Positions 3,102 through 63,863 of a stretch of 64,000 nucleotides of DNA are shown one piece after another (the first letter of the stretch is position 1; every line of letters begins with the position of its first letter). The notes below the pieces were generated by a model that saw only the letters and a list, made by a program, of their open reading frames with translations, was not told the DNA's origin and did not search any database. The position numbers were made by a program, and so were the translations under genes. The DNA is from a virus (Duplodnaviria > Caudoviricetes): IMG/VR virus record IMGVR_UViG_3300025608_000006. One strand, 5' to 3'.

Positions 3102-3989
3102 ATGCCGATAGTAAACTCGCCATTTGAATCGCAGTATGGTTTTAAAGGACCGGGATTTTCTGTCGATTCTGAAGGTAACATTATTGCTGCATCTATTACT
3201 ACAGTAGATGAAGCTGATACAGATGAAGTTTTATTTGTAAATTTTACTGTTACTGATGCAGACAACGACTTTTTTATTGCAGAATTAGGTGAAGCACCAA
3301 ATCCTACTATTACAGTTTCTAGACAAGAAACATACAGTTTCAGTCTTGACATACCAGATTTAAAAATTCAAATTCTTACAGGCAATGAGCTTGAATCACT
3401 ACAGTACAACAGTGGCATAAGTCACTCTGACGGATCTCAAGGGGCTGATGCACAACTTAAAGTAGACGGTGTACTAAGATGGAGTGTTCCATTAAATGCT
3501 CCGGATACATTATATTATTCAGATGAACTTAGAAATAACATTGGAGTAATCAATGTTGTTGATCCTACTGGACTGTTTAGTACAATAGATGTTAACTCTA
3601 CAACTAACTCAACTAGTGCAACAACTGGTGCAATTACTGTAGCTGGCGGCGTTGGAATTGAAAAAGATTTACATGTAGCCGGCGAACTGAATTTATCCGG
3701 AGTAGGAATACCAAAACTAAGTTCATTAACCAATTTAGAACTAAATGCAGAAAACAAGATAATTCTTCAAGTTGCTGATATAAAACTTGGCGAATTAAAT
3801 TCTTCTGGATTAAGTATTACAATAAATAACAGCACTATAGACAATACGGCAATTGGAGGAACTGCTCCAGCAGCAGCAGCATTTACATCAGCAACAGTAA
3901 CACAGACACCTGTGACTAATACTAGTGTAACTAATCGGCAGTATGTGGATAGTACGGCACTATCATTAGCAATAGCATTTGGATTATAA
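3102..3989 (+). CDS. Tail-fibre/baseplate-associated structural protein with degenerate cupredoxin-like domain
   Basis: Late promoter at 3078 and AGGAG RBS. Contains GAITVAGGVGIEKDL and VTNRQYVD fibre-type motifs and a PTITVSRQETYSF...WSVPLNAPDTLYY segment. Confidence 0.6.
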   Translation: MPIVNSPFESQYGFKGPGFSVDSEGNIIAASITTVDEADTDEVLFVNFTVTDADNDFFIAELGEAPNPTITVSRQETYSFSLDIPDLKIQILTGNELESLQYNSGISHSDGSQGADAQLKVDGVLRWSVPLNAPDTLYYSDELRNNIGVINVVDPTGLFSTIDVNSTTNSTSATTGAITVAGGVGIEKDLHVAGELNLSGVGIPKLSSLTNLELNAENKIILQVADIKLGELNSSGLSITINNSTIDNTAIGGTAPAAAAFTSATVTQTPVTNTSVTNRQYVDSTALSLAIAFGL

Positions 3990-53805: not shown

Positions 53806-55227
53806 ATGAGCACAAGACAAAACACAGACTATGGGTATGATATACAAAAGGTATATCTTGAGATGATGATGAGCGATGCTGAGAGCTTTGTTCGTTGTCA
53901 AGCAGTATTTGACCCTCAAGCATTTGATAGACGCTTGCAGGAAGGTGCAAAGTTTCTCACAGACTATGTGACAGAACACAACGCACTGCCCACATTCGAC
54001 ATGATCAATGCTGCAACCAAAGCAGACCTCAAAGATCCTGGACAACTACAGGAGAATCACTATGATTGGCTGTTGAATGAGTTTGAAACATTCAGCAAGC
54101 ACAAAGCACTGGAAGCAGCTATTCTCAAGAGCGCAGATCTGCTGGAGAATGGTGATTATGGAGCGTGTGAGGATCTAGTCAAGAAAGCTGTGCAGATTGG
54201 TCTACAGAAAGACTTGGGCACAGACTACTGGGCTGATCCAAGAACACGTCTAGAAGGCATCAAGAGCACAAACGGACAGGTCAGCACTGGTTGGGCTGCT
54301 ATGGACAAGAAACTGTTTGGCGGATTCAACAGAGGCGAGCTGAATATCTTTGCAGGCGGCTCGGGTGCAGGCAAGAGTTTGTTCCTAGCCAACATCGGCG
54401 TTAACATGGCTGAGAAGGGCATGAACGTGATGTACTTGACACTGGAACTTGCAGAGAGCTTGGTTAGTATGAGAATTGACAGCATGGTCACAGGCATCAG
54501 CACACGTGATGTGTTCAAGAGCATTGATGATGTTGAGATCAAAGTCAAGATGATTGGCAAGAAGAGTGGTGCATTCCAAGTCAAGTACATGCCCTCAGGC
54601 AAGACTGCAAACGATGTGCGCAGCTATATCAAAGAGTATGAGATCAAAACAGGCAAGAAAGTAGATGTGCTGTTGATTGACTACTTGGATCTATTGATGC
54701 CAGCTGGTACAAAGGTGAGTGCAGAGAACCTGTTTATCAAAGACAAGTATGTGAGTGAAGAACTGCGTAACCTAGCAATGGAACTCAATACAGTGTTTGT
54801 TACAGCGGCACAGCTGAATCGTGGTGCTGTTGAAGAAATTGAATTTGATCACTCGCATATCTCAGGCGGTCTTAGTAAGATTCAAACAGCAGACAACGTG
54901 TTTGGTATCTTTACCAGCAGAGCAATGAGAGAACGTGGACGCTATCAACTACAGCTGATGAAAACACGTAATAGTAGCGGCGTAGGACAAAAGATTGATC
55001 TGGGCTTTGATCTAGACACACTGCGCATCATAGACTGTGACGAAGATGAAGATGACAACTACACATCAAGCGGTGCAAGCTCAGGCGCTAGTAGTATTGT
55101 AAACAACCTCAAACGCACCAACACAGCCAGCGAAGATCCCAGTGAAGGAGCAGCAGCACCCAAGATACGTGCTGAAACAGACAGCACCAAACTGCGAGCA
55201 TTCCTCAACAATCTTGGTGACGAATGA
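53806..55227 (+). CDS. Replicative DnaB-like helicase (T4 gp41-like)
   Basis: GGSGAGKS, LLIDYLDL, TAAQLNR, KTRNSSG. Confidence 0.9.
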   Translation: MSTRQNTDYGYDIQKVYLEMMMSDAESFVRCQAVFDPQAFDRRLQEGAKFLTDYVTEHNALPTFDMINAATKADLKDPGQLQENHYDWLLNEFETFSKHKALEAAILKSADLLENGDYGACEDLVKKAVQIGLQKDLGTDYWADPRTRLEGIKSTNGQVSTGWAAMDKKLFGGFNRGELNIFAGGSGAGKSLFLANIGVNMAEKGMNVMYLTLELAESLVSMRIDSMVTGISTRDVFKSIDDVEIKVKMIGKKSGAFQVKYMPSGKTANDVRSYIKEYEIKTGKKVDVLLIDYLDLLMPAGTKVSAENLFIKDKYVSEELRNLAMELNTVFVTAAQLNRGAVEEIEFDHSHISGGLSKIQTADNVFGIFTSRAMRERGRYQLQLMKTRNSSGVGQKIDLGFDLDTLRIIDCDEDEDDNYTSSGASSGASSIVNNLKRTNTASEDPSEGAAAPKIRAETDSTKLRAFLNNLGDE

Positions 55228-56600: not shown

Positions 56601-56633
56601 AAAAGAAAAAAGGAACAGTGCGAACACTGCTCC
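56600..56633 (-). terminator. Rho-independent terminator ending the early array
   Basis: Minus strand GGAGCAGUG-UUCG-CACUGUUCC followed by UUUUUUCUUUUU. Confidence 0.85.
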
Positions 56634-56662
56634 CTCTCTTCACTTCCATCCCGAGAAGTTAG

Positions 56663-57028: not shown

Positions 57029-57090
57029 TTGCTATGCTCCTTAGCGTTAATGTATATACAGTATAGCACCTGTGTGCTGTGTGTCAACCT

Positions 57091-57363
57091 CTAATATTCG
57101 TATACAGTTGGCATTGTCAAGCCCTGGCCTGCACAGTAACGATCCAGTTCCTTGATCACTCTGCCATAGTAGTTGTACTTGTTCTGTGCTTGTGTAGCTG
57201 AGATCTCTCCATCGCAGTGTAGGTTCTCTGGGCTTAGGTCACTGTCTAGGCTACGTGCTAGATCGTTTACTTGTGTTTGGCTAAGTGGGAAGTTGATCTG
57301 CGGTGAGTTAAAGAAGCTACCCCAGGTGTTCTTCTGGTCGATGTATGCTTGTAAGTTTTTCAT
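57091..57363 (-). CDS. Early hypothetical protein (LSPENLHCDGE motif)
   Basis: Cassette promoter and GAGGGCAC RBS; stop abuts the next promoter. Confidence 0.8.
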   Translation of the reverse strand: MKNLQAYIDQKNTWGSFFNSPQINFPLSQTQVNDLARSLDSDLSPENLHCDGEISATQAQNKYNYYGRVIKELDRYCAGQGLTMPTVYEY

Positions 57364-57428
57364 AGTGTGCCCTCTTTGTTTAACTTATAATACTACTATA
57401 ACACCAGTTGTTGAGTTTGTCAACCGTT

Positions 57429-58214
57429 TTAGTAAGAAATTTTTGCCTCATCCAAGCGAGCAGTGATAGCATCGCCGAACTGCCAACCTTCTGGCATAGT
57501 GGTGCGCCATCCCAGCTCAGTGTCAAGACGCAGTGCATCCTTGGGATCGATATAAGCAATAGCAAGATTGTCTTTGAGCATCTCTGCAACTTGTTCTACA
57601 CTAGCTCCTGACTGAAACATTTCAACACTATGCTTGAACAGTAGATCACAAGGTACAATGTGCTCACGGTATGTGCGAACATCTGTAGGTTCATTAATAG
57701 TAATATACCGATCCACGCAGTCGAACAAGTGACGATGTAGCAATATTGTATTACCATGTTTAGTCACATCTTCAATAAACCTTGCTACGATTTCAAAGTA
57801 TGGTTTGCCAGCACTATCAAATTTCTTCCAACTGCTGGCACCAGCTGGATCCAACAAGTCACAGTCGCTGATCAATTCATACAGTGCAAGGAAGTCATCA
57901 TCTAGATTGTCGGTTTCGTAGCGCAGGTTCTTTTGTGAATCGTCTACAGCAAACCCATTATCAGTTAGGTACTCGACTACAATTGGGCGACTCTGATCAC
58001 CTTTGCCTCCTGGTAGTCCAACTCCAATCATCAATCGATTGCGAATGTAAAGAACTTCCAATACAACACCTGATTTAAGTGTTTGAGTATAGCAACGCTT
58101 GCCTTGACGGTCTTGTTTACCGCTACCTTCTACTCCTTCGATACTAAATCGGATACTGCTATCCTTTTGATTGATACGAGCGATAAAATCTTTGATACGT
58201 TCTTGAGGAGTCAT
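57429..58214 (-). CDS. Early hypothetical protein (261 aa)
   Basis: Start reassigned to ATG 58214 downstream of the cassette promoter; REHIVPC motif. Confidence 0.75.
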   Translation of the reverse strand: MTPQERIKDFIARINQKDSSIRFSIEGVEGSGKQDRQGKRCYTQTLKSGVVLEVLYIRNRLMIGVGLPGGKGDQSRPIVVEYLTDNGFAVDDSQKNLRYETDNLDDDFLALYELISDCDLLDPAGASSWKKFDSAGKPYFEIVARFIEDVTKHGNTILLHRHLFDCVDRYITINEPTDVRTYREHIVPCDLLFKHSVEMFQSGASVEQVAEMLKDNLAIAYIDPKDALRLDTELGWRTTMPEGWQFGDAITARLDEAKISY

Positions 58215-58282
58215 CTTGTTGCCCTTTGCCCTAACTGTTATATACAGTATAGCATCTATCTGCTGATTGTCAACCATTATTC

Positions 58283-58530
58283 AAAAGAAAAAGCCCGGAG
58301 CGTATTGGACGAGGGCACATCCTGCTCCGGGCTATCCTAAAGGTTATAGAGCGTGAGGGCATACGCTGTTCTATAACCTGTTACCGCACTGTTCTTGGTG
58401 ACAGCTTCGGCTTATTGCAGTCTAGGGACGAGGGCACATCCTTCGACTGTTTGAGCTAGCGCGAACGAGGGCACATTCGTTCTAGCTCAGGTTGGACTGC
58501 ACCGCAGGGTGCGCTACAGTCCTACAGTGT
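58283..58530 (-). ncRNA. Structured 3' RNA with four (R)UGCCCUC-loop hairpins and a terminator
   Basis: Four stem-loops with different stems and the same loop (+ coordinates 58311-18, 58355-62, 58430-37, 58467-74); last hairpin followed by UUUUCUUUU on the - strand. Confidence 0.75.
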
Positions 58531-58539
58531 TGCGGAGCT

Positions 58540-59541
58540 CTATGCTCGACGCATCACCGTATTCTCTGCCATCGCTTCCCACTTGTCGGGGAAAGCGCCA
58601 GCTAGGTCTGCTACCTTGAGCACTGTGCGCAGCGATAGCTCACGCAGCTTGCTCTTGTTGATCTCTACGAAATCCATGATCTCCGTCTTGACTTCTTCTG
58701 ACAGTTTACGGTCATCCAACATGCCATCTTGTACCACTTGCTTGATGCGCAGTACTTTGTCCTTGTCACTATCAATAGTCAAGTCCATGTAGTGACAGCG
58801 GCTCTCCAGTGCTTCCAAGTGCTCACGCAGCTTGCCTTTTACCTTATCGAACTTCAAGTTAGTGATAAAGATAGCACTAGCTTCGAACTTGAACTTGTCT
58901 GGCACACCTTCGTTGCGCAGCTTGAAGCTGTCAGTGTTCCAGTGGATCCAACGATTCTTCTTTGAGTCCAATGCTGCTTTCAAGATGTTCAAGCTTAGGT
59001 CATCTTGGAAGATGCTGTCACAGTCATCGAACACCACTACCTTGCCTTTGTCTGCCATGTTGAACAGTTTGCAGTAGAGTCCAATTGGGCTCATAGCGCC
59101 TTTGATAACTTCGTGTGTCTTGCCTGCACCTAGTGTTTCCATAGTTGCATAGCGATCCAGCACTTCTTCAACACCATGGCTCTTGCCCACGCCCGGAGGA
59201 CCTGAAACGATCATAGCGCGAACGTTTCCTTTCTTTACCGCTTTGGTCATGTCTTTGAGCATATCAAAACGTTCGCGGATGCGCTCTACAATCTCAGCGT
59301 CTGACTCCTCAGGCAAATCGTTCTTCTCTGCTTCACCGACCAACTCGTAGTCCTCCGGGCTGCTGCATTTGATCTTGATGTTGCGGTTGGGCAAGCCTGT
59401 CACAGGAGTTGCGTCAACTGTGACTGCGCCGCCGCTGGTTCCCATAGTAAACTCTTTGGCCATTGGGAATACAATACCGCTCATGTCTGTTTCTTTTCCA
59501 CGTAGTCTATAAGTACCATTTACAATCTTAATGTTCTGCAT
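58540..59541 (-). CDS. AAA+ ATPase
   Basis: SGPPGVGKS Walker A, VVFDDCD Walker B, FITN, ALESRC. Confidence 0.85.
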   Translation of the reverse strand: MQNIKIVNGTYRLRGKETDMSGIVFPMAKEFTMGTSGGAVTVDATPVTGLPNRNIKIKCSSPEDYELVGEAEKNDLPEESDAEIVERIRERFDMLKDMTKAVKKGNVRAMIVSGPPGVGKSHGVEEVLDRYATMETLGAGKTHEVIKGAMSPIGLYCKLFNMADKGKVVVFDDCDSIFQDDLSLNILKAALDSKKNRWIHWNTDSFKLRNEGVPDKFKFEASAIFITNLKFDKVKGKLREHLEALESRCHYMDLTIDSDKDKVLRIKQVVQDGMLDDRKLSEEVKTEIMDFVEINKSKLRELSLRTVLKVADLAGAFPDKWEAMAENTVMRRA

Positions 59542-59609
59542 GTGTTTGCCCTCATGTGTTTGTTTAACTTATATACAGTATAGCATCAATCTAACGTTTG
59601 TCAACCACT

Positions 59610-59786
59610 TTATGTAAATATTAGATAAAGAATTCCAAGTACTGCAATCACCACAGCAGGTGGTACCAGTGTGAAGATCAAGCTGTGAACACACTGTTCC
59701 CAAAAGCCCACGTACTCGTTGCAGTTGTGACACTGTGGAGCAAAGAAGTTCTTATCCATTTGATGACAGTTTGGACATACGCTCAT
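59610..59786 (-). CDS. 58-aa zinc-ribbon plus transmembrane peptide (not in ORF track)
   Basis: MSVCPNCHQ...QCHNCN...PPAVVIAVLGILYLIFT; AGGAG RBS. Confidence 0.65.
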   Translation of the reverse strand: MSVCPNCHQMDKNFFAPQCHNCNEYVGFWEQCVHSLIFTLVPPAVVIAVLGILYLIFT

Positions 59787-59787
59787 C

Positions 59788-59925
59788 TTATAATACTCCT
59801 ACAAAGGATGGTTGAAGGACAGCACCTGCCCACATAAGTCCTGCGCCAAGCCATATCAGTATTGCACTCAGCAAGCCTGTTTGCCACAGCACCAAAAGGA
59901 TTACTAGTTTGATCAGCGTTCCCAT
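59788..59925 (-). CDS. 45-aa membrane peptide
   Basis: MGTLIKLVILLVLWQTGLLSAILIWLGAG...; AAGGA RBS before ATG 59925. Confidence 0.6.
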   Translation of the reverse strand: MGTLIKLVILLVLWQTGLLSAILIWLGAGLMWAGAVLQPSFVGVL

Positions 59926-59926
59926 C

Positions 59927-60202
59927 TTAGCGATCCTTGCGATCAATAGTGATCGTTCCCTGCATCCATGATACAATCAACTCACGGTCTTCATCTGAGA
60001 AGTCTTTAGCAGTTGTACCAAACGTAGCGCCAAAGTGTGTGAGCGCATTGCCCACATGGCTTAGGTTGTTGAGTGTGCGCAAGCCATCTTCAGTCACAGG
60101 GCCAAGTCCGTGAATCTTACCGTACTCTTCTGAGTAGTTCATCATCTCACGTCCGATAGTAGCCAGTTGCTTCTGTTCAGTTGTTGCTTCGAAAAATGCC
60201 AT
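59927..60202 (-). CDS. Early hypothetical protein
   Basis: Cassette promoter and AAGGGCAA RBS. Confidence 0.75.
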   Translation of the reverse strand: MAFFEATTEQKQLATIGREMMNYSEEYGKIHGLGPVTEDGLRTLNNLSHVGNALTHFGATFGTTAKDFSDEDRELIVSWMQGTITIDRKDR

Positions 60203-60265
60203 TGTGTTTGCCCTTTATCTAATTGTTATATACAGTATAGCTTCACTTGCGGAGTTTGTCAACCC

Positions 60266-60313
60266 CTAATTTGGAAGTCCGCCATTCCAGTCATCACAGG
60301 GATCATCATACAT
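60266..60313 (-). CDS. Possible 15-aa micropeptide
   Basis: MYDDPCDDWNGGLPN; AGGAGG RBS, TAATG coupling, TAG inside the next promoter repeat. Confidence 0.45.
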   Translation of the reverse strand: MYDDPCDDWNGGLPN

Positions 60314-60531
60314 TATTCGTCCTCCTGTTCACGACCTTGTGCAAAGTCCAACAAGTCTGCTGCCAATGCTGCTGCTTGTGCGCGAGTCAACTGCACCCAG
60401 CTAAACGGGCCGCCTTCGCTCCAGCTGCCTACTTTGCTCTGTGTCAATTGCACACAAGTGCCTCGGTCGCTGCCTCCAAAGAAGCGTGTCATTGTTACGC
60501 CTTCTGCGTGTGTTTTCAATTCTGTTGACAT
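60313..60531 (-). CDS. Early hypothetical protein
   Basis: Cassette promoter and GAGGAGCAC RBS; FFGGSDRGTCVQLTQ. Confidence 0.75.
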   Translation of the reverse strand: MSTELKTHAEGVTMTRFFGGSDRGTCVQLTQSKVGSWSEGGPFSWVQLTRAQAAALAADLLDFAQGREQEDE

Positions 60532-60595
60532 CGTGTGCTCCTCTAATGTCTAACTTATACATACACTATAGCACCACTGTGCTAGTTTGTCAACC

Positions 60596-60667
60596 ACAAA
60601 AGTAGCAGGAGGAGTACTTTTTTTGATCGAGGGCACAATCAAATGTTCCTCTACTCCTGCTATTTGT
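60596..60667 (-). ncRNA. Fifth GUGCCCUC-loop hairpin in the tRNA-operon trailer
   Basis: Minus strand UUGAUU-GUGCCCUC-GAUCAA on top of a UAGCAGGAG/CUCCUGCUA stem. Confidence 0.7.
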
Positions 60668-60765
60668 CCGGGCTCTGGGGCAAGTCTATTAATAGTCCCC
60701 AGCGCCGACAGTCGCTATGTGATCTGTGCTTCACGGTTATTAGCACGAGCGCTGTCTACTCAGTT

Positions 60766-60842
60766 TGGCCTCCCCTGCAGGATTCGAACCTGCGACCCAC
60801 AGCTTAGAAGGCTGTTGCTCTATCCAGCTGAGCTAAGGAGAG
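60766..60842 (-). tRNA. tRNA-Arg(UCU)
   Basis: CTCTCCT acceptor, ACAGC-CTTCTAA-GCTGT anticodon arm, GGTTCGAATCC, encoded CCA. Confidence 0.95.
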
Positions 60843-60846
60843 TATA

Positions 60847-60923
60847 TGGTGGGCCCACCGAGACTCGAACTCGGAACCTACGGATTATGAGTCCGGTGCT
60901 CTAACCAATTGAGCTATAGGCCC
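60847..60923 (-). tRNA. tRNA with CAU anticodon, probably Ile2 (lysidine) rather than Met
   Basis: GGGCCTA acceptor, CTCATAA loop, GTTCGAGTC, CCA; the GGGCC start resembles bacterial Ile2. Confidence 0.85.
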
Positions 60924-60929
60924 TGTCTT

Positions 60930-61014
60930 TGGTGCTCCCTGTCGGACTTGAACCGACATGCCTTGCGGCGACAGATTTTAAGTCTGTTGTGTATACCTAT
61001 TCCACCAAGGGAGC
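60930..61014 (-). tRNA. tRNA-Leu(UAA)
   Basis: GCTCCCT acceptor, ACAGA-CTTAAAA-TCTGT, long variable arm, GGTTCAAGTCC, CCA. Confidence 0.95.
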
Positions 61015-61028
61015 GAATTCTGTTTTAC

Positions 61029-61187
61029 TTATGCCCCATCATCCATTTCTAATTCAAACTCTGAAGCCATATCTTCTTCAATAGCTTCAGCAAGTGCTTC
61101 ATACTTGGCTCGCAGTTCGCTTACCTGCCGCAGCGACAGCACACGATCCAAGTCTTTGATAACATCTTGTAGTGTAATATAATCCAT
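61029..61187 (-). CDS. 52-aa acidic protein (not in ORF track)
   Basis: MDYITLQDVIKDLDRV...ELEMDDGA; TAATG coupling. Confidence 0.6.
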   Translation of the reverse strand: MDYITLQDVIKDLDRVLSLRQVSELRAKYEALAEAIEEDMASEFELEMDDGA

Positions 61188-61384
61188 TACTGCACCCATA
61201 CGTGGTTGAATTTGGTTGGAAGGTTATCACAGCTGAAGATCTCATCTGTGTAGTTAACGACTTTGACGCACTCATTTGTTGCGTAGCTAACATGGACATC
61301 TGGCGCACTCAACGCTGAGTTCATTGCGTATCCTAGTCCTGCTAACATAGTCCCTGCAAACGCGATAGTAAAAACTGCTTTCAT
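61187..61384 (-). CDS. Early protein with N-terminal signal/TM segment
   Basis: Hydrophobic N-terminus, two Cys; cassette promoter. Confidence 0.75.
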   Translation of the reverse strand: MKAVFTIAFAGTMLAGLGYAMNSALSAPDVHVSYATNECVKVVNYTDEIFSCDNLPTKFNHVWVQ

Positions 61385-61458
61385 TGTCGTTGCCCTTTTG
61401 CTTAACTGTTATATACAGTATAGCGCCGAAACGCTATACTGTCAACACCTAATTTGCC

Positions 61459-61707
61459 TTATTCAGCAAAAACTTTTGCACGTGATCCTGTGATGTCACG
61501 AGCACTTACTGCATAGCGAGCCTTGCCCGTTGTAGCAGTGTCCACACGCACGTTCAATCCAGCAGCTCGCAAGTCGCTGATTCGTGCAGTTAGATTTTGG
61601 ATTCCGAAACGTGCCTTTGCATCAGCAGCAGTGATTGTCTTGCCAGTGCCACGCAGGTAAGTTTCAAGGAATGCAGTTTGGTTTGATTTAATAGTAGTAA
61701 AGCTCAT
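61459..61707 (-). CDS. Winged helix-turn-helix protein
   Basis: LETYLRGTGKTITAADAKARFGIQNLTARISDLRAAGLNV (HTH_39-like pattern). Confidence 0.75.
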   Translation of the reverse strand: MSFTTIKSNQTAFLETYLRGTGKTITAADAKARFGIQNLTARISDLRAAGLNVRVDTATTGKARYAVSARDITGSRAKVFAE

Positions 61708-61806
61708 AATATGTACCCTTTAGAAAGTTTAGTTTAAAGTTTGCCTATCAACACTTTTTGCTCCAGTGTCTATATAGTATAGCACCTTTGCGGGATATGT
61801 CAACCC

Positions 61807-62001
61807 CTAATTGAACATATCGTCCCAAGCATCTTCAGTGATGCCAGTCTTGATGAACTCACGCTCACCAGCTGTTAGTTGGGGGAATGCATCCTGTACC
61901 AACAGTTTGCCTTCAAAGTAGGCTTCAACCTGCTCGTAGGTTACGTCAAGATCCATGGTGTTCTCTTGGCCGTTGAATGGATTAGTACGTGTGATTTTCA
62001 T
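61807..62001 (-). CDS. Early hypothetical protein
   Basis: VQDAFPQLTAGEREFIKTGIT; cassette promoter. Confidence 0.8.
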   Translation of the reverse strand: MKITRTNPFNGQENTMDLDVTYEQVEAYFEGKLLVQDAFPQLTAGEREFIKTGITEDAWDDMFN

Positions 62002-62066
62002 AGTGTTTGCCCTTTTCCCTAACTGTTATATACAGTATAGCATCAATTGAGGATTTGTCAACCTCT

Positions 62067-62264
62067 TTATGCAGTTTTAGTGCCAGTCTTTAGATTATAT
62101 TCAAAGCGCAGACCGCCCAGTACATCACGACAGCGGATGTAATCATAGTAGCCTTGTGCCTTCATTGCTTGATGAACAGCCTTGCCATCCGCAGCGTTTG
62201 ATACAGTGTCTACCCACTGCTCTGCACCACCGTCTTTGATTCCGAATATTTTGTAGCTTCTCAT
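62067..62264 (-). CDS. Early hypothetical protein
   Basis: Cassette promoter with doubled AGGGCA. Confidence 0.75.
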   Translation of the reverse strand: MRSYKIFGIKDGGAEQWVDTVSNAADGKAVHQAMKAQGYYDYIRCRDVLGGLRFEYNLKTGTKTA

Positions 62265-62326
62265 CGTATTGCCCTTTGCCCTAACTGTTATATACAGTAT
62301 AGCACACTCTACGGATTTGTCAACCC

Positions 62327-62482
62327 CTAATTGTCACTAACAATAAATTCACGCTCTTCTGGCAGGTATGCTATCAGCACATCTTTGGGCACTCGTTGCA
62401 GCATCTCGTAGAGTGCAGTTGTGTCCCGATCTTCGAGGTCGTTCTCTATCTGGTGAATCACTTCGTCCCACAGGTCCATCAT
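62327..62482 (-). CDS. 51-aa protein (not in ORF track)
   Basis: MMDLWDEVIHQIENDL...FIVSDN; AAGGAG RBS; TAG inside the next promoter repeat. Confidence 0.65.
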   Translation of the reverse strand: MMDLWDEVIHQIENDLEDRDTTALYEMLQRVPKDVLIAYLPEEREFIVSDN

Positions 62483-62760
62483 AGCGCATACTCCTTATTG
62501 GATTTCAACTGCCACTTCTCTAACACAGGCAAGCCGTATTCATCTTCGTCCACAACCACATAGGCAACTGTCTTCTTGACTGTGCCATAACGGTAGCCAG
62601 TCATGCCAGCAACACCGCCACCACCTACCCATATCTTGTGCAGCGTGTCCTCATTGCAGTTGTTCAACGGATCATCGTTGACACTATACTCGAAGTAATT
62701 GCCTGTGTCCTTCTCAACGAAGCAACCTATTGGATCTTTGGTGTAGGTGTAGTATGCCAT
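62479..62760 (-). CDS. Early hypothetical protein
   Basis: RYGTVKKTVAYVVVDEDEYGLPVLEKW; cassette promoter. Confidence 0.8.
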   Translation of the reverse strand: MAYYTYTKDPIGCFVEKDTGNYFEYSVNDDPLNNCNEDTLHKIWVGGGGVAGMTGYRYGTVKKTVAYVVVDEDEYGLPVLEKWQLKSNKEYAL

Positions 62761-62859
62761 GTCTTGCCCTCATTGCCTAACTGTTATATACAGTATATGC
62801 TCTAATAGGGGATCTGTCAACCATTATTTGGAAAAAAGATCCCCTTTAGAATCAATAGC

Positions 62860-63426
62860 TTACAAGCCTGTGGGTGCTAGGTTTACTTCTTCGTCTTCAT
62901 CCTCTTCTTCTTCCATTTCCTCATACTCTGCAAGACGCTCGTCTAGAGCATATTCGTCCACAAGATACTCTGGGATCATGTTGCGAACAGTGTCTGAGGT
63001 TGCACCTGAATAGTCATAGTGGTCGTCAGCACCTTCTGAATCCCAGTAGCCAACGAAGCACATACCGCCTTCTTCGTAGTATGCTTCTAGGTATACGCCG
63101 TCCATGTCATCACAGAACGCTGAGTAAGCGTCAATGGGCGGGCTCCAAGCCGAATCAAACCAACCTGTGATCTCACTAGTGCCGTCACCGTTGTCTGTGA
63201 ACTCAAGACCTTCAGTATCAACATCCCACTTGGTCCCCCAGTTAGTGACACACCAGTCATACCAGTTAGGCCCGTCACTAGGAGCAGTTGTCCCTTCTAG
63301 TTCCTTAGGCATAGGAATCATTGCGTTCAACAAGCCGCTGCCTTCTTGATTAGCGTCTTCCCACAGTTCCTTGATAGTCTCTGTGGAACCTTTGATTGTG
63401 ATTGAGTTGTTGCACCAGTTAGGCAT
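62860..63426 (-). CDS. MPNWCxN-family (DUF1281/YubB-like ferredoxin-fold) protein
   Basis: MPNWCNN, WYDWCVTNWGTKWD, FDSAWSPP, YYEEGG. Confidence 0.75.
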   Translation of the reverse strand: MPNWCNNSITIKGSTETIKELWEDANQEGSGLLNAMIPMPKELEGTTAPSDGPNWYDWCVTNWGTKWDVDTEGLEFTDNGDGTSEITGWFDSAWSPPIDAYSAFCDDMDGVYLEAYYEEGGMCFVGYWDSEGADDHYDYSGATSDTVRNMIPEYLVDEYALDERLAEYEEMEEEEDEDEEVNLAPTGL

Positions 63427-63577
63427 AGTCAGTCTCCCCCATAAGTTCTGTATCTACAATATCGGAATGTTCAAACGAGTAATCACACTCGCTCATGATG
63501 TCCTGGATGTCAGCGTCCCTAAGGACCTCCAACGCCACTGTGACATAAACTGTCTTGGTGTTGTCAGCGCCTGCCAT
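63419..63577 (-). CDS. 52-aa acidic protein (not in ORF track)
   Basis: MAGADNTKTVYVTVALEV...GETDYA; GGAGG RBS; overlaps both neighbours. Confidence 0.6.
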   Translation of the reverse strand: MAGADNTKTVYVTVALEVLRDADIQDIMSECDYSFEHSDIVDTELMGETDYA

Positions 63578-63789
63578 TAGCAGTCCTCCCCAAATGCGTC
63601 ATACAGTTCTGTCAAGTAATCAACGTCTGGCTCATCGTCTTCGAAGAACCGCTCGCTCAACTCATTACAGTCAAGCATATCCTCAACGTCATCGTTGCTC
63701 ATATACTTGAGCGCCATAGTCAGCATGTCTTCTGCTGACACCATGCCGTTCTCAACCAACTCAAGTGCGATATCTCTGTAGTTTGTCAT
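63577..63789 (-). CDS. Early acidic hypothetical protein
   Basis: ATG 63789 after GAGGGCAT RBS and cassette promoter. Confidence 0.75.
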   Translation of the reverse strand: MTNYRDIALELVENGMVSAEDMLTMALKYMSNDDVEDMLDCNELSERFFEDDEPDVDYLTELYDAFGEDC

Positions 63790-63863
63790 TTGCAAATGCC
63801 CTCTGCTTTGTTTAACTTATATATACACTATAGCACCGAATGCGCTATGTGTCAACCTCTTTT

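Follow-up and report, generated by a model that had tools for sequence, protein, structure and literature searches.

Post-transcriptional silencing of early genes in large lytic phages is understood mainly for T4, through the proteins RegB and RegA; the endoribonuclease RegB inactivates early mRNAs via their GGAG Shine-Dalgarno (SD) sequence. RNAIII and the Rsa-type sRNAs of Firmicutes bind SD sequences with several C-rich (UCCC) hairpin loops. The C4 antisense RNA of phages P1 and P7, for which Rfam includes a family, is cut from the transcript of its target and pairs through its loops with the ribosome-binding site (RBS) region of that target. In the icaR mRNA of Staphylococcus aureus, UCCCC in the 3′ UTR pairs with the SD in its own 5′ UTR (PMC3868564). 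The PeSL cassettes of T4-type phages combine a stem-loop, an early promoter and an SD; these units occur dispersed across hyperplastic regions and have a conserved stem (PMC2839356, PMC4122927).

The element reported here lies in a window of 64,000 nucleotides (the whole stretch of DNA that was analysed) and belongs to a family of phage RNAs, undescribed so far, that lie at operon ends and bear anti-RBS loops. Its mechanism may be regarded as a variation on known anti-SD regulators such as icaR, RNAIII and C4. As in icaR, a C-rich anti-SD in the 3′ UTR complements the RBS of the same mRNA, here that of an AAA ATPase gene in several lineages; a 3′ UTR complementary to its own SD region was found in the window, in clades B and C (see below) and in further lineages. 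In contrast to icaR, which sits on a Gram-positive chromosome, the phage complement is known from sequence, is presented on one to five hairpin repeats, one of them in a terminator tip, and reaches past the SD into a class-specific extension common to many early genes. With RNAIII and the Rsa-type sRNAs it shares a multi-loop design in which similar C-rich apical loops are complementary to the G-rich RBSs of a set of mRNAs, but there is no sequence or Rfam relationship, the loops are part of the 3′ end of an mRNA and not of a gene of their own, and the targets would be the phage's own temporal gene class. Like C4, it is a phage RNA on the same transcript as its putative target, with loops directed against the RBS region; unlike C4, it has no Rfam match at E up to 10, differs in architecture and phage type, and would act on lytic early genes instead of a lysogenic immunity target. 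The parallel with RegB is that a class-specific early SD lets one factor silence a whole class, the factor being a protein nuclease in T4 and, as proposed here, an RNA. Homologues of RegA and RegB were absent from the contigs of five relatives (a hint only, these being 27-77% complete), whereas both were matched in the ime09 control.

Rfam 15 recognised only tRNAs in the window and in the loci of nine relatives covering all clades, and returned nothing over 58200-58600 at E up to 10, in agreement with the first-pass annotation, which had recognised no described family. A blastn search of the element against 50,697 phage records gave no match, and the clade is absent from cultured phages. Literature searches with the loop and RBS strings retrieved unrelated papers only.

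An early operon and its structured 3′ end

The window, which encodes tail sheath, TerL, UvsX-like and DnaB-like proteins, derives from an uncultured marine T4-like myovirus. Its late genes have T4-type late promoters (TATAAATA) with an AGGAGA SD. These promoters stand directly 5′ of AGGAGA boxes at 3102, 17917, 22296, 37738 and other late starts (+), and early and late genes therefore use two RBS dialects. Between 57 and 64 kb, the minus strand carries 12 near-identical sigma70 promoters (TTGACA, 16 or 17 nt, TATA[C/G]T), and a conserved leader follows each of them. The AGGGCA box was found 4-7 nt 5′ of the ATG in nine of the 12 early leaders and in no gene outside the early region of the window. 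The AGGGCA RBS described in the first-pass annotation is thereby borne out; the 8/8 matches between loop and RBS that it had reported are also present at both sites (Table 1). The leaders at 60531 and 57028 (-) have GGAGCA in place of AGGGCA, like the clade-B RBS core, and no UGCUCC loop matching them was seen in the window. The twelve promoter-leader cassettes at 57060-63855 (-), followed by GTATATAACAGTTAGGGCAA, look like PeSL-type mobile regulatory units.

The AAA ATPase gene is a homologue of the gene annotated as nrdC.10 in T4-like records. At its 3′ end, the minus strand of 58283-58545 codes for no protein and forms six hairpins in succession (-111.9 kcal/mol, z = -7.6), the last of them an intrinsic terminator. 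Four of the six present the loop GUGCCCUC (three times) or AUGCCCUC (once) on outer stems that differ from one another. Hairpins, stems and loops were thus confirmed from the sequence where the first-pass annotation had placed them, together with its closing pairs (U-G three times, U-A once) and the U-tract after hairpin 4 (58283-58292, -). In the GUGCCCUC loops the first G and the last C could pair, which leaves a hexaloop, UGCCCU, that is the exact complement of AGGGCA.

Table 1. Coordinates of the element, its hairpins and the early-gene signals in the window
Feature	Position	Strand	Basis or remarks
Element in full, structured 3′ UTR of the early mRNA for AAA (NrdC.10-like)	58283..58545	-	sequence, fold, synteny
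Accessory 5′ hairpin	58494..58522	-	C-rich ACCCU loop, without GCCCUC motif; conserved in L001, L030
Hairpin 1	58452..58489	-	loop GUGCCCUC 58467-58474; covariance model (CM) score 24.7 bits
Hairpin 2	58418..58449	-	loop GUGCCCUC 58430-58437; CM score 22.6 bits
Accessory hairpin, motif absent	58383..58411	-	fold
Hairpin 3	58341..58379	-	loop AUGCCCUC 58355-58362; CM score 25.7 bits
Hairpin 4, intrinsic terminator with motif hairpin at its tip	58283..58333	-	loop GUGCCCUC 58311-58318; CM score 28.8 bits
Fifth motif hairpin, tRNA operon terminator	60596..60667	-	loop GUGCCCUC 60629-60636; CM score 26.6 bits
AAA ATPase gene, T4 NrdC.10 homologue, 333 aa	58540..59541	-	Pfam AAA, AAA_16; phrog_1250
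Sigma70-type early promoter of the AAA gene and element	59577..59604	-	TTGACA, 16 nt, TATACT
Next early promoter, directly 3′ of the element terminator	58246..58273	-	promoter scan
RBS of the AAA gene itself, GAGGGCA	59547..59553	-	complements loops over 7 nt; duplex -12.8 kcal/mol
Early-gene RBS GAGGGCAC	57367..57374	-	8/8 complement of GUGCCCUC; -16.6 kcal/mol
Early-gene RBS GAGGGCAU	63796..63803	-	8/8 complement of AUGCCCUC
Tandem AGGGCA-A-AGGGCA, leader of the gene just 3′ of the element	58220..58232	-	
Tandem AGGGCA-A-AGGGCA leader	62270..62282	-	
Early-gene RBS AGGGCA	60209..60214, 61391-61396, 62008-62013, 62765-62770	-	

The outer stem of hairpin 4 has 10 GC-rich base pairs and is followed by UUUUUCUUUU, and in the fifth motif hairpin, which caps the terminator 3′ of a tRNA-Leu/Met/Arg cluster, ACUUUUGU comes after the stem; both are intrinsic terminators, which a strict terminator scan missed on account of the long structure inside them. 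Hairpins 1-3 lack a U-tract. Motif-bearing terminators close two of the three early transcription units in the window. The terminator of the third unit, at 56606-56639 (-), has a UUCG tetraloop and lacks the anti-RBS motif. Between tRNA-Arg and the motif-bearing terminator there is a structured RNA of ~165 nt (60600-60765, -; z = -4.5), in a position reminiscent of the stable RNAs, of unknown function, downstream of the T4 tRNA cluster.

This arrangement resembles PeSLs in that two of the 12 near-identical promoter-leader units have a terminator hairpin before them, and a stem-loop directly 5′ of a sigma70 promoter is followed by an SD and a start: hairpin 4 ends ~10 nt before the -35 box at 58273, and the promoter at 60593 immediately follows the fifth hairpin. 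In contrast to PeSLs, it is the loop that is conserved here while the stems vary, and the five copies are confined to two operon ends in 64 kb; the combination of conserved stem, variable loop and dispersed units was not found.

The octamer GAGGGCAY occurs eight times in the window against 1.85 expected, a count reached in 0 of 100 shuffles. Four copies belong to the element and a fifth to the tRNA operon terminator (60629-60636), all on one strand, and the remaining three are an internal site (54589-54596) and the RBSs at 57367-57374 and 63796-63803. In simple duplex energies, the loop binds 11 early translation-initiation regions (TIRs) at -8.1 to -16.6 kcal/mol (mean -11.8) and the nine AGGGCA leaders at -10.6 to -16.6 kcal/mol, against a mean of -3.7 for 39 other genes of the window (Mann-Whitney p = 3e-7 against the early set). 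The 16S anti-SD tail reaches only -6.3 on those early leaders, roughly half the stability of the loop duplex.

Co-varying stems and the transcribed strand

All 57 non-identical sense-strand RTGCCCTC sites from relatives were aligned, with stems not used as a selection criterion. Across the five flanking pairs, 76.8% of the cells were paired against 49.8% in shuffles, and the covariation score was 0.674 against 0.216 (0 of 500 shuffles), with slid registers all at ≤0.17. The closing pair was U-G in 31 sites, U-A in 10 and C-G in three. Antisense copies of the octamer are RBS complements without stems. Because the stems co-vary and the U-G closing pairs become C-A on the plus strand, the RNA strand is the minus strand, as the first-pass annotation had favoured.

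That annotation had also offered the alternative of a plus-strand RNA whose GAGGGCA loops sponge a translational repressor in the manner of CsrB/RsmZ. The plus strand of the element does fold (z = -3.8), and the cUUCGg cited for it exists, although at 58405-58410, one base away from where it had been placed. Nevertheless, the minus-strand fold is far stronger, 31 of the 57 closing pairs would be C-A mismatches on the plus strand, and promoter, gene and terminator all lie on the minus strand, no promoter having been found on the plus strand. The GGA motif of CsrB/RsmZ loops is absent too, the transcribed-strand loops reading UGCCCU, and we reject the sponge as extremely improbable.

A covariance model recovered only five copies in the 64-kb window, at 22.6-28.8 bits, with the next best at 10.8. 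In the relatives' contigs (98-275 kb) it gave three matches each at E ≤ 1, of which one to three reached ≥17 bits; the strong ones adjoin the AAA gene, and single ones lie 2.4-2.7 kb off in G003 and G004. Marine metatranscriptome contigs match the element with zero mismatch over 58357-58553 (X20) and 58415-58520 (X21), which indicates presence in RNA libraries only, since strand, ends and level are not readable from them and they may include DNA carried over. Coverage by these contigs is missing from some bins, for example 57442-58069, and their depth cannot rank genes.

Loop and RBS pairs among relatives

A relative of the AAA protein is encoded at 51 IMG/VR loci, the best matched segments being 45-95% identical. 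Loci at ~65% or more have one to five GCCCUC-loop hairpins directly 3′ of the gene, the last of which is the terminator, and this terminal hairpin bears the motif in nearly all relatives. The genes downstream of the element differ from one relative to another. A second syntenic motif site behind tRNAs was present in L003, L009, L030, L032 and L077. An exact 16-mer scan of IMG/VR produced 35 matches, mostly the same syntenic element; about 10 of them, on GC-rich contigs and within coding sequence, were discarded as chance matches at this database size. The nearest cultured AAA homologues, in Aeromonas phiA8-29, Pseudomonas PA5oct and the T4-like ime09, are instead followed by the next gene or a plain hairpin, and many more distant NrdC.10 homologues, those of T4-like phages included, have plain terminators. 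In L008 (2190-2900), an extra ~450-700 nt, which may be a mobile insertion, separate the motif hairpins from the AAA gene.

A profile search added 80 loci with AAA identities of 46-71%. In the AAA tree, clade B is sister to clade A, to which the window belongs (support 98/82 for B and 100/96 for A). Clade A combines the RBS GAGGGCA with the loop UGCCCUC, and 22 of 28 relatives in this clade have RAGGGC as the RBS of the AAA gene. Most clade-A RBSs read AGGGCAA, for which reason the conserved purine 5′ of UGCCCU would stay unpaired with most of them; pairing spans 6-7 bp for most targets. Within clade A, the loop purine was not seen to co-vary with the base that follows AGGGCA, an A in most RBSs. 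In the L020 lineage many RBSs are GAGGGA or GAGGGU, leaving only 5 bp with the loop.

Clade B combines the RBS GGAGCGAA with the loop UUCGCUCC, its exact reverse complement. Its early genes have (A)GGAGCGAA 3-5 nt 5′ of the ATG, four to seven times per locus, and GAUUCGCUCCCGG lies in the loops after the AAA gene, on one or two hairpins that occupy the same place at the operon end as in clade A. The motif is predicted to be unpaired with a mean probability of 0.79, against 0.38 with shuffled flanks. One sub-clade has an extra gene 3′ of the AAA gene, and its hairpin, CCG-AUUCGCUCC-CGG, is found ~600-930 nt (mostly 800-860) downstream, directly before the operon terminator. As the hairpin lies beyond the extra gene there, the constant feature is the operon 3′ end. 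In sub-clade B2 (L094-L118), a small Cys-rich gene with Cys pairs and a YCxxHY-like motif precedes the anti-RBS hairpin, ~0-800 nt after the AAA gene.

In clade C, AGGAGUGAGAA is paired with UUCUCACU; the AAA RBS is AGGAGUGAGAAC and the loops contain UUCUCACU, CUCACUC and ACUCCU. Further combinations were RBS GGAGACAGACAA with loop AUUUGUCUGGCUCC in L163, RBS GAGGGUGAC with loop GUCACUCUC in L033 (one G-U), and RBS CUAGGCAA with loop UUGCCUAG in L148. The B-type RBS and B-type loop also occur together in L159, a distant long branch. In the deep lineage L106/L112 the AAA RBS is AAAGGGCAC, and loops are absent in 4-7 kb of sequence.

Sorted by RBS and loop type in this order, the 85 loci comprised AA 30, BB 28, CC 5, A- 3, C- 2, -A 1 (L030) and neither 15. 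The two types agreed in 63 of 63 informative loci with no cross pair, the clades amounting to few independent evolutionary events. One seeming BA locus was dismissed, its hexamer being a chance occurrence in coding sequence and its true B loop lying at +842. In a matrix of loop by AAA-TIR duplexes for six lineages, the diagonal was the best of 720 permutations; the choice of lineages was not blind, since D to G and L148 had been noticed through their C/U-rich loops. A BLAST-linkage test at 72% identity found three of 14 clusters significant (p = 0.03), lineages lacking hairpins included, and a lineage test based on shared TIR 9-mers gave nothing usable. Neither of these automated tests, which used crude clustering, was informative: A-rich leaders and single linkage had lumped clades A and B together.

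The first-pass annotation had named co-variation of loop and RBS among relatives as a check of its idea, and the three clades pass it at all 63 informative loci without a mismatched pair. Its wider notion of a class-wide element applies only to clades A and B, the window included, where the early leaders share the RBS. The loops nearly always match the RBS of the element-bearing AAA gene, which is their most constant target across lineages. From these comparisons we strongly infer that the loops pair with the RBSs.

Three readings would not need this pairing. The first is that the hairpins bind a phage or host RNA-binding protein, for titration or termination control, and that the RBS complementarity is incidental. 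An invariant loop on variable stems, in one to five tandem copies with one always at the terminator tip, is a layout typical of protein-binding RNA motifs. Such a protein, however, would have had to switch its specificity on three occasions, always to the sequence exactly complementary to the clade's RBS extension, and apart from AAA no conserved partner gene adjoins the element, the downstream genes differing between relatives; we hold this reading to be unlikely.

The second is a DNA-level site, in which the box in its two orientations binds a double-stranded DNA regulator or recombines, as inverted repeats flanking the AAA cassette in PeSL-type shuffling. A DNA site has no use for co-varying stems or one-strand U-G pairs, the copies occupy the loops of transcribed 3′-UTR hairpins and the tips of terminators, and the motif is not dispersed among many promoter cassettes. 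These points make it very unlikely, even though the box stands at a fixed distance 3′ of early promoters and inverted after the AAA gene, box and inverted copy change together between clades, and the promoter-leader units resemble PeSL cassettes (PMC4122927).

The third confines the hairpins to stabilising the 3′ end or terminating transcription, with a loop that has no specific partner. As this reading would have it, hairpin 4 and the hairpin distal to the tRNAs are both intrinsic terminators, but no U-tract follows hairpins 1-3, and a loop that is irrelevant to such roles is nonetheless invariant and tracks the RBS across clades. Its probability is accordingly slight, and a little below that of a DNA site.

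A proposed model of early-gene silencing

With a probability of roughly 60%, the element would be an anti-RBS RNA that, in cis or as a stable 3′ fragment, occludes early ribosome-binding sites. The hairpin loops would hold the C-rich UGCCCU core single-stranded at the non-coding 3′ end of an early mRNA and would base-pair with the AGGGCA boxes of the sigma70-driven early leaders, that of AAA included, so that the RBS would be hidden. Occlusion of the 30S subunit may be expected because the pairing spans the SD core and a private extension of 3-6 nt that the anti-SD cannot read. On the one hand, pairing could take place inside one mRNA, whose translation would then be possible only until its 3′ end has been transcribed. 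On the other hand, a stable terminator-bearing 3′ fragment could accumulate with early transcription and pair with other molecules. Early transcription would thereby limit early translation, as negative feedback or as shut-off, and late genes, having AGGAGA, would escape. Where most early leaders carry the same box, as they do in the window and in clades A and B, the effect would extend to the whole class. Pairing in the cell and repression by it are inferred, as are its timing and its route in cis or in trans; as the element is co-transcribed with its targets, repression would set in from the start unless kinetics or stability delay it.

The same pairing could also have the opposite sign, the loops protecting early leaders from an endonuclease or opening them and enhancing initiation. 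All of the pairing evidence is silent on direction, and an element made along with its targets suits a helper; moreover, there are two tandem-AGGGCA leaders, whose upstream box, 12 nt 5′ of the ATG, is not at the SD position. Against activation or protection, the SD core (GAGG or GGAG) is covered in every clade, which normally blocks 30S binding, by a loop duplex about twice as stable as that of the anti-SD. We therefore regard a positive effect as rather unlikely, if slightly less so than a protein-binding function, and prefer occlusion.

A more far-reaching version of occlusion, which we put forward tentatively and with some doubt, is RNA-only lock-and-key control of a whole temporal class: a multi-loop RNA, released from early operon ends and accumulating, would titrate exactly the leaders with a private SD extension and so switch off early translation, no RegB- or RegA-like protein being involved, and at least three orthogonal pairs of loop and RBS would have co-evolved. 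The element suggests an RNA solution to early silencing in an abundant uncultured group of marine myoviruses, and the different RBS/loop pairs of the three clades are a natural experiment with putatively orthogonal sets. If confirmed, it would be the first phage case of feedback from a 3′ UTR to an RBS, it would explain why these phages keep a non-canonical, class-specific SD, and it would supply synthetic biology with compact orthogonal translational repressors.

In seven relatives (L009, L012, L015, L016, L018, L019 and L032), the TAA stop of the AAA gene falls within the loop of the first motif hairpin (UAAUGCCCUC), and terminating ribosomes would therefore unfold that hairpin.
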